A stretch of DNA of 64,000 bases from a virus (IMGVR_UViG_2534681834_000006), one strand, 5' to 3'. Positions 51,026 through 57,073 are shown, counted from the first letter of the stretch. Numbers and translations are program-made. The notes: generated by a model from the sequence alone, not told the origin.

Positions 51026-54000
51026 CTATATTTTTCCGCCTACGCCTTTAAACTTCTCAATAAACGAGACGATTTTCTGGAAAACTGCCTGTTTTTTCGT
51101 TTTATATTGCGGATTCAACGGACTAAGTTTTGGTAATGTTTCGTTTAATTCTGTGCCATTTTCGGTGGCGTATTCGCGTTTTAAAGACGTGCGAATATAG
51201 CGTTTTGCTGCTTCTTCATTGAGGTTTTCTTCTTTTATCAATGCTTCTGCTTCACGTTGCTGTTCGCGTTGAGCAAACGTAAAGAATGCCTCAATGATAC
51301 TGGCTTTGTCTGGTAAATCATCCAGGTTCGTTTGCTGAATAAAATCGACCACCAGGCCCTCTTTCGCCCGGTTTCCCAGGCTTGAACGAATTAAGCGTTT
51401 GACCTCTTCGATCATTTCGCCCTTGCCTTTATTTTGTCTGTTGTGTTCGAAAATCAGTCCAAGGATATAATCCAGGTTTATTTCCTGAGACTTCAGCAAA
51501 TCGACCTCAAAAACTACATCATCCCAGTCAGTGGTTGATTTCTCTTTTTTCTCAGCTTCTTTCTCACGGCGCTGCCAGTCGCGAATATCGTTATAGGCAG
51601 AACGATAATCCTGAATCTTGCGATCAGCAGGGAGACGAATTGTTTGCAATTCAGCGAACTTTTCATCATCCACATAATGTTCTGCTTTGAATTTTTCTAC
51701 CGCAACAGGATCGCTAAGATCGATTTGTTGCAGGGCTTTTAGCGTGGCAAATTCATCATAGTTTTGCAGGATGTTCTCGGCACGCAGGTATTCGCCAAAC
51801 AGTTTAACGAAGTCTTTCTTCTCTTTTTCACTTTCAATACTGGTAGGGTCAGGGAACCGTTGTTCCAGTTCTGAAACTACTGTCATGAAGCCGCGTTTAG
51901 CTTCACCAGTGGCAGCATCAGTAAAGCCTTCCATATACTCTGCATAACTCTTTTCTAAAACCACATTTTTGGTATTTTTGTCACCAAACAGCGTTATGGC
52001 ATCAATGGTTGAGCGTTCCAGATCCCGGAACGTGACGATATTACCGAAGGTTTTAGTCGCGTCATAAATGCGGTTGGTGCGGGAGAATGCCTGCATCAGG
52101 CCGTGAAAACGCAAGTTTTTATCGACGAATAGCGTGTTCAATGTTGGAGCGTCGAAGCCGGTTAAAAACATCCCAACGACAATTAACAGATCGATATCCT
52201 GATTTTTAACCCGTTGGGCTAAATCACGATAGTAGTTCTGAAAACCGTTACTGTCGGTACTGAAGTTAGTTTTAAAATAGCTGTTATATTCACGAATTGC
52301 AGCGTCGAGAAACTCTTTAGCACTGCTGTCCATTGCGCTGGTATCAAAAGTTTCATCGGAAATTTCACCAATGGCATTTTGTTCTTCATTAGCGGCAAAG
52401 GAGAAGATTGTCGCAACACGTAGTGGTTTATAGGTAGCAGATTTATAAGCGGCTTCCTCTTGTAACCGTTTAAACGTCGCGTAATAGGCTTTCGCGGCAT
52501 CCACGCTGCTCACTGCCAGCATGGCATTAAAACCTTTGGAGCCAGGGAAAGTACGGTGGGTTTTCTGGCGGAAGTTATTCAGGATATATTGCGTAATTTC
52601 CTGAATACGCATGGGATGAAGGAACGCCTGCTGATTTTCAGCCGCACTCAGTTTTTTCTCGTCAGTTTCTGTCTCTAAAGACTTAAACTGTGGCCGCACA
52701 TCGTTGTAGTCCACCTTGAATTTAAGCACTTTTTCATCACGAATCGCATCGGTAATAACATATGAATGCAATTCACGGCCAAATACGCTGGCGGTCGTTT
52801 CTGAGCCTAAGGCGTTTTCCGGGAAAATAGGTGTGCCGGTAAAACCAAACTGATAATAGCGTTTGAATTTCTTCTTCAGGTTTTTCTGTGCTTCTCCAAA
52901 CTGGCTGCGGTGACATTCATCAAATATAAACACCACTTGCTGATTGTATACAGGCAGGTCGCTTTCTGCTTTCATCAGGTTATTAAGTTTCTGAATAGTG
53001 GTGACGATAATTTTGTTATCGTCCTTATCCAGATTTCGTTTAAGACCTGCGGTATTTTCCGAGCCGTTGACGCTGTCTGGCGAAAAACGCTGATATTCCT
53101 TCATGGTCTGGTAATCGAGGTCTTTCCTGTCGACCACAAAGAAAACTTTATCAATAAAGTCCAGTTCTGTTGCCAGACGCGCGGCTTTAAAGCTGGTCAG
53201 GGTTTTACCGGAACCCGTGGTGTGCCAGATATACCCACCGCTTTCCGGTTTTGACCAGTTCTTCGCTGTAAAGGAGCTCTTAATTTTCCACAGAATGCGC
53301 TCGGTGGCGGCAATCTGGTACGGTCGCATCACCAGTAGCGTCTGACTACTGTCAAAAACGCTGTAGTTCACCAGAACATTCAGCAGAGTATGTTTCTGGA
53401 AAAAGGTAGCGGTAAAATCTTTGAGGTCTTTAATCAGCGTGTTGTCTGATTTCGCCCAGTTCATGGTGAAGTCAAAACTATTTTTATCGCGCTTTGTGGT
53501 GTTGGCAAAGTAACGGGTATCGGTGCCGTTAGAAATGACAAACAGTTGCAGATACTTAAACAGGGAATTTTCGCTGTTAAAACTCTCTTTACTGTAACGA
53601 TGTATCTGGTTGAAAGCCTCACGAATCGCCACGCCGCGCTTTTTCAGTTCGATTTGCACCAGAGGCAAGCCATTAACCAGGATAGTTACGTCATAACGGT
53701 TAGCGTGAGAACCTGCCTGTTCAAACTGCTGGATAATCTGCACTTTGTTGCGCATGAGATTCTTTTTATCTATCAGATAGATGTTCTCAAGACGCCCGTC
53801 GTCAAAAATAAAGTCGCAAATATAGTCGATATGGATTTTACGGGTCTTATCCAGAATGCCATCGCTCGGGTTGTCCAGATACTGCTCCGTGAAACGCCGC
53901 CACTCGCTGTCATTAAACACCACACCATTGAGGCTCTGAAGCTGTTCCCGAACATTGGACAGCATAGCCGACTGAGATTTTACGGATATAAATTCATAGC

Positions 54001-54142
54001 CCTGATTCCGCAGGTCCTGAATCAGTTCACGTTCCAGGTCCGATTCGCTCTGGTAGCTGTCGCCTGTTGGCTCAGCTTTGATGTACTTATCAAGGACGAT
54101 AAAGTTATTGGATTCAGCAATAGTGTGTGTCTGATGAGTCAT
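51026..54142 (-). CDS. hsdR: Type I restriction enzyme R subunit (HsdR)
   Basis: ATG at 54142 after aagga RBS; helicase motifs (TGSGKT, DECHRS), 1038 aa; the track ORF extends upstream to 54202. Confidence 0.9.
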
Positions 54143-54263: not shown

Positions 54264-55520
54264 TTAATTACTGACAGTTTCAGGTTTCGGGAAACTGAAC
54301 AGTAAGTCACGATAGTACTCGTATTGTTTCTGGCGCAACTCGATTTCACGCGGGAGACCTTCGGTGATGGAGTTGGTCAGGGTGTCGAATTTATCGAGCA
54401 GAGCAGATATTCGCTCTTGTTTCTGTTTATCAGGCAATGGCACTGGTAATGTTTTTATAATATCTGCATTCAAGTTACTGACCGACCCGCTATTGATTTT
54501 ACTTTCCCAATAATTTTTCACCTTTTTTGATGAAAGATAGTGATACAGATAATCAGCATTTAATTTTTCACCAAAATTGCTGATTGATGCCCATCCATCA
54601 TGGATAGCTCCGGTTATCCTTAAAATATATGGTCTGCCAAAGCTCATAGAGTTAGAAATGACGAAATCACCGGGGTTCAAGATTCGCGATTTTTGGGCAC
54701 CCTCTGCAGTTATTTTTTGTAAGGTTTTGTCAATGTATTTAGAGCCGGGGATAGTATCTCCGATTTTAATCCATGGGATACCATTTCCTTGTTCAGTAAG
54801 ATAATTAACAATTGGCCTGGGGGATGCCCCACGTTGTATTTTGGCTACTTCTCCCAATGCCTTCCACTCAACCTCACCCTCTTTAAAACTCAGCAACTGG
54901 TCGCGATAGTAGTTGTACTGTTTTTTACGCATGTTAAGCTCAGCGGTAAGCTCAGCGGTAAGTGCAGTAAATTTGTCCAGAATCCGAACGATTTCAGACT
55001 GGATGGCGAGGGATTTTTCCGGATTATCCGGGCAGGGAATTGGGATGAGTAGTTTTGACATCAATGCATTTGAGCTTAGATTCGGTTGTGCTCCGCCCCC
55101 GGCGAGGATATAAATAGTCTCTGTATTTAACAATAAAAAATGGTATAAATAATTATTGTTTAGAATATTTTCTTTGGGTATGAATTTTCCAACCCGTTGG
55201 TTAAGATAACATTTTGTTCCTTTTTTATAAATTCCCACTTTTCCTGTAGTGGCACCTGACATTGCAATCAATATATTTCCCATAGATACCTCAAAGGAGG
55301 ATAAATCTTCCTTGTAATCATTTAGTGAAAAGTATTTCACCTCATCTAAGTCAACATTAAATCCATCTATATTTGTGATTCTAACTATCGGTAACCCAGT
55401 TTCTTTAAATAAGCTGCTTTTAAATGCAAATCCATTTTTAAAATCACAAACATCCTTCAAGGGTTTCCACTCAACCTCAACCCCATCCAGCAATTTTTCC
55501 AGATAACTCAACTCGCTCAT
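54264..55520 (-). CDS. hsdS: Type I restriction-modification specificity subunit (HsdS), two target-recognition domains
   Basis: 418 aa; central conserved ...[13 protein letters not shown]... with TAEL repeats as in Type IC (EcoR124-like) HsdS. Confidence 0.85.
54936..54959. repeat. 12-bp tandem repeat (2 units plus a degenerate third) encoding the TAEL repeats of hsdS
   Basis: aagctcagcggt aagctcagcggt aagtgcagtaaa. Confidence 0.7.
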
Positions 55521-57073
55521 TTCTGCACCTCGCAGCCTTCAATTTCAGCCACAATCGCATCAATATCTTTACGCAACTGGTCGATTTTGCTGACCGTGAT
55601 TTTCAGCTCTGCATTCAACTCAGCGATATCGATAATTTCGCGAGTATCTTTCGCTTCAACATAGCTGCTCACCGACAGGTTATAGTCATTAGCAACAACG
55701 GTCTCAAACGCGACTGATTTCGCCAGATGAGCAACATCTTCCTTGCTGGCAAATACCTGCATAATCTGTTCGATATGGGCATCGGTCAGGATATTGTTGT
55801 TGGTCTCTTTTTTGAATAGTTCGCTGGCGTCAATAAACTGAACTTTTGTATCTGTTTTATGTTTAGACAACACCAGAATGTTTACGGCAATGGTGGTGCC
55901 AAAGAACAGGTTCGGTGCCAGTGAAATCACGGTTTCGACATAGTTATTATCAACCAGATACTGACGGATTTTCTGCTCCGCGCCGCCACGGTAAAAAATA
56001 CCCGGGAAGCAAACAATCGCAGCACGACCTTTGGCAGAAAGATAGTTCAGCGCATGTAGTACAAAGGCGAAGTCAGCTTTTGATTTGGGGGCCAGAACGC
56101 CAGCCGGGGCAAAACGTTCATCGTTAATCAGCGTCGGGTCATCGCTGCCAATCCATTTCACCGAATACGGCGGGTTAGAAACGATGGCATCAAACGGTTT
56201 TTCATCTCTGAAGTGTGGTTCAGTCAGCGTATTGCCCAGCTTGATATCAAACTTGTCGTAGTTGATGTTGTGCAAAAACATGTTCATACGCGCCAGGTTA
56301 TAGGTCGTATGGTTGATTTCCTGACCAAAAAAACCTTCTTCGATGATATGGTCATCAAACTGTTTTTTAGCCTGCAACAACAGCGAACCGGAGCCTGCTG
56401 CCGGGTCGTAGATTTTGTTAACGTGGGTCTGCCCGTGCATAGCCAGTTGTGCAATCAGCTTAGAGACGTGCTGCGGTGTAAAGAACTCGCCGCCGGACTT
56501 ACCGGCATTCGCGGCATAGTTAGAAATCAGGAACTCATAGGCGTCACCGAACAGATCAATCTGATGTTCGGTGAAGTCACCAAGTTTTAACCCTTCAACC
56601 CCTTTCAGAACCGCAGCCAGGCGGGCATTTTTATCTTTAACGGTGTTACCCAGGCGGTTACTGGTGGTATCGAAATCAGCAAACAAACCTTTGATGTCTG
56701 CTTCTGAAGGGTAGCCGTAAGCAGAACTTTCGATAGCAACGAAGATACTGTTTAAATCTGCATTCAGTCTGTCATTGGTATTTGCTTTCGCAGCTACGTT
56801 GCAGAAAAGCTGGCTTGGGTAGATGAAGTAGCCTTTGGTTTTGATGGCATCGTCTTTAATGTCATCAGTAATTACGCTGTCATCCAGTGCTGCATAACAG
56901 ATGCTGTCATCATCGGCTTCCATATAGCTGGAAAAATTTTCGCTGATAAAACGATAAAAAAGCGCGCCCAGAACGTACTGCTTAAAATCCCATCCATCGA
57001 CTGAACCCCTGACATCGTTAGCAATTTGCCAGATCTGGCGATGAAGTTCTGCACGTTGTTGAATACTTGTCAT
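55517..57073 (-). CDS. hsdM: Type I restriction-modification N6-adenine methyltransferase (HsdM)
   Basis: NPPY(S) catalytic motif, AdoMet motif [10 protein letters not shown]; overlaps the hsdS start. Confidence 0.9.

Follow-up and report, generated by a model that had tools for sequence, protein, structure and literature searches.

We analyzed the 64,000-nucleotide viral sequence IMGVR_UViG_2534681834_000006 (hereafter the window, meaning this whole stretch) and found that it carries all three genes, hsdM, hsdS, and hsdR, of a Type IC (EcoR124-family) restriction-modification (R-M) system. With a probability that we put at roughly 0.88, this is a complete and apparently functional system, borne as accessory cargo in the variable interval between pap and phd of a P1-like phage-plasmid. 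The window itself is such a phage-plasmid: positions 32642-64000 are 99.98-99.99% identical to a plasmid of E. coli ETEC1731 (NZ_CP122822.1), and positions 1177-11735 match nt 36337-46628 of P1.

An intact EcoR124-family operon with its own recognition domains

A first-pass annotation, made from the sequence alone, had placed a complete hsdM-hsdS-hsdR operon in this part of the window, and both the open reading frames (ORFs) and the Pfam searches agree. The three genes follow one another in that order on the minus strand. The first, hsdM (55517-57073, minus strand), encodes a 518-residue N6-adenine methyltransferase subunit with the domains N6_Mtase (E = 2.5e-121) and HsdM_N; hsdS (54264-55520, minus strand), which overlaps hsdM by 4 nt, encodes a specificity subunit of 418 residues with two Methylase_S domains; and hsdR (51026-54142, minus strand) encodes a translocase/endonuclease subunit of 1038 residues with the domains HSDR_N, SWI2_SNF2/ResIII, T1R_D3, and EcoR124_C (the last at E = 1.5e-71). 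The hsdR ORF extends upstream to a GTG at 54202. Because the product read from the ATG at 54142 (MTHQTH...) aligns over residues 1-1038 with EcoR124I HsdR (PDB 2w00_A), this ATG is probably the true start, and the 20 codons ahead of it are probably untranslated. The HsdM of the window begins two residues later than the EcoR124 HsdM chain, to whose residues 3-520 it aligns; window positions 57073-57081 read AAG AAA ATG where the prototype HsdM would have its first methionine.

Membership of a Type I family is judged by similarity in sequence, by complementation, and by cross-reaction of antibodies (PMC3874165). The Type IC character suggested by the first-pass annotation is well borne out by comparison with EcoR124I and EcoR124II, the Type IC prototypes from plasmids R124 and R124/3, which have the same gene order and nearly identical HsdR and HsdM. 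HsdR scores 2288 bits against EcoR124I HsdR 2w00_A (self-score 2311), HsdM scores 1142 bits against EcoR124 HsdM 7bst_D (self-score 1161), and the N-terminal, central, and C-terminal conserved blocks of HsdS are identical to those of EcoR124 HsdS (PDB 7bst_A). Besides this similarity, HsdR combines an EcoR124-type C-terminal domain with a RecB-like nuclease motif and a superfamily 2 motor, and HsdS starts and finishes inside the D2 conserved region, with TAEL repeats in the D1 region at its center. All three ORFs are full length, and every catalytic motif is kept: the nuclease residues D151, E165, and K167 and the QxxxY motif (Q179) of HsdR, its motor motifs (Walker A GSGKT at 310 and a DECH box at 408), and the HsdM motifs DPAAGSG at residue 223 and NPPY at residue 300.

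The difference from EcoR124I lies in HsdS, both of whose target-recognition domains (TRDs) are distinct. In the alignment to 7bst_A, TRD1 (approximately 55071-55463, minus strand, about residues 20-150) and TRD2 (approximately 54414-54860, minus strand, about residues 221-369) are unlike their EcoR124I counterparts, and the central conserved D1 region (54861-55055, minus strand, about residues 156-220) is identical. The target half-sites should therefore differ from the GAA and RTCG of EcoR124I. TRD2 is distantly similar to a TRD of the M. jannaschii S subunit 1yf2 (E = 6e-14). Prediction of the target from structure fails: EcoR124I is the only solved Type IC HsdS and has other TRDs, and both 1yf2 and EcoKI (2y7c) are too distant.

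Each of the two TRDs was also found apart from the other, with many different partners, among database proteins. We read these separate pairings as the modular reassortment known for the Type IC family, among whose members TRD modules are shuffled (PMC3874165). We found no mention in the literature of WP_001293041, the accession of this HsdS. The exact protein (P0001, WP_001293041.1) is encoded on 91 contigs, and a variant with two substitutions (P0002; K213D/K412T) on a further 21. The full hsdS gene of this allele occurred in only 4 PLSDB records and 3 complete E. coli genomes; Type IC hsdS DNA of some kind was present in 1315 of 5426 complete E. coli genomes (about a quarter), on chromosomes as well as plasmids.

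The TAEL repeat and its copy-number variation

Within hsdS, the first-pass annotation had singled out two 12-bp units encoding TAELTAEL, and this proved exact: two tandem copies of AAGCTCAGCGGT (54936-54947 and 54948-54959) encode TAELTAEL on the minus strand, the coding-strand unit ACCGCTGAGCTT being the reverse complement of AAGCTCAGCGGT. Tandem Repeats Finder reports a tract at 54935-54962 with period 12, 2.3 copies, 100% match, and a score of 56. Around the tract, some 65 residues are identical to the EcoR124 HsdS chain of 7bst. Because the tract lies inside this identical central region, we take it to be homologous to the EcoR124I repeat and not a chance duplication; in our reading, its significance rests on homology and not on chance statistics. 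The homology also agrees with the role of spacer determinant that had been assigned to the repeat.

The rule that relates the repeat to the spacer of the recognition sequence, two copies giving N6 and three giving N7, has been known since 1989. EcoR124I, which like the window has two units, recognizes GAA N6 RTCG, and EcoR124II, with three, recognizes GAA N7 RTCG (PMC3874165; table in PMC12707154). EcoDXXI and EcoprrI, members of the same family, differ from the window in having three TAEL units and N7 spacers (PMC3874165; PMC12707154). The change in TAEL copy number has been attributed to unequal crossing-over (PMC3874165).

A search for two- versus three-repeat variants, as the first-pass annotation had proposed, yielded a natural counterpart of EcoR124II. 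The element IMGVR_UViG_648276648_000009 (hereafter L014) encodes exactly the window HsdS with one additional TAEL, that is, three copies. Over 11,241 aligned bases (window positions 48672-59912), the two elements differ by 4 single-nucleotide polymorphisms, one 1-bp indel, and the extra 12-bp unit, and hsdM, hsdS, and hsdR are all open in L014. The existence of this three-unit sibling, otherwise almost identical, shows that the repeat number has changed in the lineage of the window.

Variation of this kind extends beyond the window allele. Among IMG/VR contigs, 15 carry at least three exact TAEL units and 19 carry exactly two. Two perfect units are found in 105 of the 120 best database relatives of the HsdS, and the other 15 have either a single perfect unit or two to three units, one of them imperfect. 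Three pairs of HsdS proteins differ solely in TAEL number (P0055/P0068, P0005/P0007, and P0096/P0113). The first of these pairs belongs to a chromosomal Type IC HsdS allele of E. coli, whose 426-residue form with TAEL twice (P0055/P0059) is encoded on 14 and 49 contigs and whose 422-residue form with TAEL once (P0068), 100% identical to P0055 outside the repeat, on 47; one-unit forms are therefore common in nature.

For the window allele, two kinds of search were directed at other copy numbers. A gapped DNA pattern, consisting of the window's TRD pair with one to three repeat units between, was run on IMG/VR, GTDB representative genomes, and JGI metagenomes; it matched only L014 and one other IMG/VR contig, L029, and had no match in the GTDB representative genomes or the JGI metagenomes. 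Synthetic versions of P0001 with one, three, or four TAEL copies, and of P0002 with one or three, had no exact match in a collection of 15 billion proteins. The missing three-copy form reflects a coverage gap of that collection, since IMG/VR contains one. The full-length matches in a megablast search of PLSDB and complete E. coli genomes with hsdS were all two-copy.

How such changes should be read depends on their frequency. The first-pass annotation had called the repeat a potential specificity switch, and a copy-number variant does exist; the word "switch", however, overstates what appears to be a rare evolutionary change, given more than 110 two-copy contigs (91 + 21) against a single three-copy contig. 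A stronger form of this idea would make the tract a programmed, high-frequency switch of the phasevarion type, acting within clonal populations. Copy-number variants are indeed known for this and other alleles, and repeat-mediated variation of hsdS is known elsewhere (PMC7383803). Phase-variable Type I systems with repeat tracts in hsdS or hsdM likewise change specificity through repeat number, and those that invert hsdS, such as SpnIII, do so by site-specific inversion; these systems rely on long simple-sequence tracts or inversion and operate at high frequency. The window, in contrast, has just two 12-bp units, a tract much shorter than those in which slippage is frequent; its ORFs include neither a recombinase nor invertible hsdS' cassettes near the operon; and one state strongly predominates. 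We therefore regard a programmed switch as very improbable and conclude, from the two 12-bp copies and the skewed contig counts, that the TAEL tract shifts over evolutionary time, a change that appears to be real but rare and unprogrammed.

By analogy with the family, HsdS and two HsdM subunits would form the methyltransferase (M2S), which would modify a single adenine per half-site of a bipartite target, and with two HsdR subunits added (R2M2S) it would become a translocase that is driven by ATP and cleaves unmodified DNA at positions remote from the target. Two TAEL units would be expected to give a geometry like that of EcoR124I, with an N6-type spacer and a distance of 7 bp between the methylated adenines, as derived for two-TAEL Type IC enzymes from a table of target sites (PMC12707154). 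The three-unit sibling would need a distance of 8 bp, so that each enzyme would be expected to cut DNA methylated by its counterpart. Unequal crossing-over or slippage that adds or removes a 12-bp unit would shift the spacer by 1 bp and create a new specificity, against which the old methylation would give no protection.

A well-described cassette site in P1-like phage-plasmids

The operon lies in a cassette of about 6.2 kb (50951-57178, minus strand) that reference P1 lacks. Its left border, at 50950/50951, corresponds to P1 nt 84482, as determined by BLAST against P1, phi456, and vB_EcoM-673R5 and by a three-way junction alignment. Up to this nucleotide, the left backbone (50255-50950, plus strand) is 98% identical to P1; P1 homology on this side covers pmgQ, pmgR, pmgS, and pap (50255-50761, plus strand), which encodes a HAD/PNKP-type phosphatase. 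The right border falls at about 57164-57178, where hundreds of hsd-bearing plasmids, phi456, and vB_EcoM-673R5 diverge. GC content is approximately 0.40-0.47 in the cassette and 0.46-0.51 in its flanks.

To the right lies a variant of the P1-like backbone (57179-58457, plus strand) with an ORF for 74 residues (57204-57428, plus strand), DNA resembling upfM-upfN-upfO, and hot (58206-58457, plus strand), a homologue of the DNA polymerase III theta subunit. The operon thus has pap to its left and hot to its right, the neighbors named in the first-pass annotation. P1 homology restarts at 57555 (upfM-N-O and hot; 82%) and again at 58849 (lxr, humD, phd, and doc; 97%). The intervening 376 bp (57179-57554) were considered as part of the cassette and ruled out, because a homologue of the 74-residue ORF lies directly upstream of hot in CP088846.1, a P1-like plasmid without hsd genes. 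The cassette accordingly stands in place of pmgT, pmgU, and pmgV only, with hot, lxr, and humD retained, and reference P1 has no Type I system here, as the first-pass annotation had stated. In a CRISPR interference survey of P1, pmgT, pmgU, pmgV, upfN, upfO, hot, lxr, and humD scored as non-essential; upfM was untested in that survey and is listed there as non-essential from an earlier study (PMC10695390).

This location is well described. According to the P1 RefSeq record, two stretches of P1 correspond to flanks of the EcoDXXI hsd locus, nt 84263-84482 to its downstream side and nt 87969-88647 (phd-doc) to its upstream side, and nt 84399-84482 correspond to the DNA that follows hsdR in R124/3. 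P1-homologous DNA on both sides of Type IC hsd loci was described by Tyndall et al. in 1997, as cited in PMC12707154. The left junction of the window coincides exactly with the end of the EcoDXXI and R124/3 flank features, and the P1-homologous flanks annotated in the P1 record are a trait that the window shares with EcoDXXI and EcoprrI. Many conjugative and other plasmids match a junction probe only from window position 50867 onward, that is, over the same 84 bp as R124/3; the EcoR124 replicon is a conjugative plasmid that keeps just these 84 bp of the pap flank, whereas the window is a P1-like phage-plasmid with the full pap flank. Because the linkage of Type IC loci to this P1 junction was published in 1997 and appears in the P1 GenBank record, the arrangement is less unusual than the first-pass annotation had suggested.

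On the right, the window departs from the classical arrangement. In the classical loci, and in phi456 and vB_EcoM-673R5, hsdM abuts phd-doc; in the window, the 74-residue ORF, the upfM-O-like DNA, hot, lxr, and humD intervene. The same right junction was found in many draft assemblies and in no fewer than 18 plasmids of PLSDB. We read the difference as a different extent of backbone deletion and not as a different cassette. The prrC anticodon nuclease gene, a point of comparison with EcoprrI, is absent from the window ORFs.

The view of the operon as exchangeable cargo is upheld by its distribution. It is absent from P1, P7, RCS47, SJ46, and others in the phage collection, so that it is not a fixture of P1-like genomes, and within that collection it was found at the pap junction in phi456 and vB_EcoM-673R5 only; an hsdM-hsdS fragment also occurs in Salmonella phage SJ1 (a 24.5-kb record). 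It is present in hundreds of P1-like plasmids: PLSDB contains 257 plasmids with a contiguous pap-hsdR junction, against 172 with the reference pap-pmgT junction, so that in this database the hsd-bearing state is no rarer than the reference P1 state. The architecture of the window was found at 99.99% identity in GCA_900448605.1, the assembly of an NCTC strain whose contig is 99.994% identical over 17 kb, and it recurs in many further assemblies. R-M systems are prominent among the genes that phage-plasmids exchange with plasmids (PMC10879196).

These counts bear on the direction of the exchange. The hsd-bearing state could be the older one in the P1-like backbone, with reference P1 having gained pmgT, pmgU, and pmgV instead. 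The PLSDB counts point this way, as do the 84 bp of P1-type flank retained by Type IC loci on conjugative plasmids. A terminator-like hairpin points in the same direction: it lies on the minus strand at 50832-50810, about 200 bp downstream of hsdR, and consists of a 10-bp stem followed by TTTTATTTT. This hairpin falls in DNA shared with P1, yet no minus-strand gene precedes it in reference P1, which may hint at a leftward gene such as hsdR as an older occupant. Against this stand the lower GC of the cassette relative to its flanks and the several other gene sets that fill the same interval (in P7, JL22, and CP088846.1), which leave no state obviously ancestral. We consider a reversed exchange the less probable direction.

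Two further observations concern R-M cargo and its mobility. The Type III system of reference P1, EcoP1I, is likewise R-M cargo of a P1-type prophage but is a different type of enzyme; its locus (P1 nt 3544-9600, between mat and lxc) falls outside the 64-kb window. In the ETEC1731 plasmid (L005), positions 7239-8315 show lxc followed directly by mat (a DUF3944 protein), and the Type III res-mod genes are absent there. The window HsdS allele also occurs on a different backbone, in positions 5351-12494 of L010 (GCA_047598785.1, DBFGEU010000016.1), where the DNA is 96.5% identical from the hsdR stop through the 74-residue ORF and hot. The genes of that backbone (methionyl-tRNA-synthetase-like, ParA, DUF3927, and TerB) resemble those of another phage-plasmid type, and the cassette seems to have moved jointly with the hot and humD flank. 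Elsewhere in the window, positions 13099-14690 have only weak similarity (84-86%) to the antirepressor/icd region of the ETEC1731 plasmid, and the immunity region of the window therefore differs from that of this otherwise near-identical relative.

Predicted transcription signals and standing of the system

The hsdM and hsdS genes would be read from a predicted promoter within the roughly 100 bp of cassette DNA upstream of hsdM, in which TAGAAT (57117-57112) was the only −10-like element seen. Kulik and Bickle are said to have described, in 1996, a separate promoter for hsdR of EcoR124I. A promoter-like site between hsdS and hsdR (TTAACA-18-TATTTT, 54207-54236, minus strand), which matches 9 of 12 consensus positions in a consensus scan, would fit that description, and hsdR is probably transcribed from its own promoter, with this site (54236-54207) as the candidate.

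At the other end of the operon, the P1 backbone contributes signals of its own. A C1-operator site resembling Op88, ATTGCTCTAATAAGTCT (50761-50777), is conserved from P1, and a 28-residue hydrophobic ORF (50860-50946, plus strand; MNTAFKIIMAAIYFWLFSIIFGGIVAHG) lies between it and the left junction. The predicted PpmgT promoters of P1 are conserved in the window and are now aimed through this ORF into the 3' end of hsdR. Speculatively, prophage induction could derepress them and cause antisense transcription of hsdR. Inside the cassette, 15 nt past the hsdR stop, a perfect 11-bp inverted repeat (50981-51010) consists of TCTTGCGGGTT, a loop TAATTAAG, and AACCCGCAAGA, with no T-run on either strand.

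Several points weigh against the reading of the operon as a complete, working system. In the closest complete relative, NZ_CP122822.1 (99.98% identical), hsdR is interrupted by a 1.3-kb IS1203 at window position 53323-53325, with a 3-bp overlap, and hsdM and hsdS are intact; in vB_EcoM-673R5, the hsd genes are annotated in fragments. Restriction loss therefore occurs in the lineage of the window. The promoters are weak consensus matches only, and activity is inferred from the integrity of the sequence. The N6 prediction presumes that the TRDs of the window contact DNA in the same register as those of EcoR124I, and the three-copy form of this allele was seen only once, being absent from the protein collection, PLSDB, the E. 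coli genomes, GTDB, and JGI. The interrupted hsdR, the fragmented annotation, and the weak promoter matches would suit a silent or decaying passenger, unexpressed or heading to inactivation and conferring methylation only or nothing. In the window, however, hsdR is uninterrupted, all ORFs are full length with their catalytic motifs complete, and the scores reach 98-99% of self-score against subunits of the biochemically active EcoR124I; we therefore rejected operon decay for the window itself. The identical intact operon also occurs in many independent assemblies and in NZ_MN510446.1. A silent or decaying passenger is thus quite unlikely, and an intact, apparently functional Type IC system remains our preferred reading.

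Near-identical siblings that differ by a single TAEL, such as the window and IMGVR_UViG_648276648_000009, might restrict one another and so exclude their closest competitors cheaply, and the C1-controlled PpmgT could lower restriction at induction. We offer both ideas as conjecture and consider them unlikely.

Overall, the system is an ordinary member of the Type IC family at a well-described location, and its interpretation by the first-pass annotation was right but not new. Since the enzyme family, its residence at the P1 junction, and the TAEL rule are textbook knowledge, the discovery value is small. What is added is an uncharacterized TRD combination, a variant right junction with hot, lxr, and humD still present, and a pair of natural elements with two and three TAEL units. 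The uncharacterized HsdS allele, with its new pair of TRDs, is fairly widespread in E. coli from livestock. The clean two- versus three-copy pair, embedded in 11 kb that are otherwise identical, is a handy subject for testing the spacer rule by methylome analysis. Finally, the frequency of the hsd-bearing state matters wherever reference P1 serves as the template for annotating phage-plasmids.

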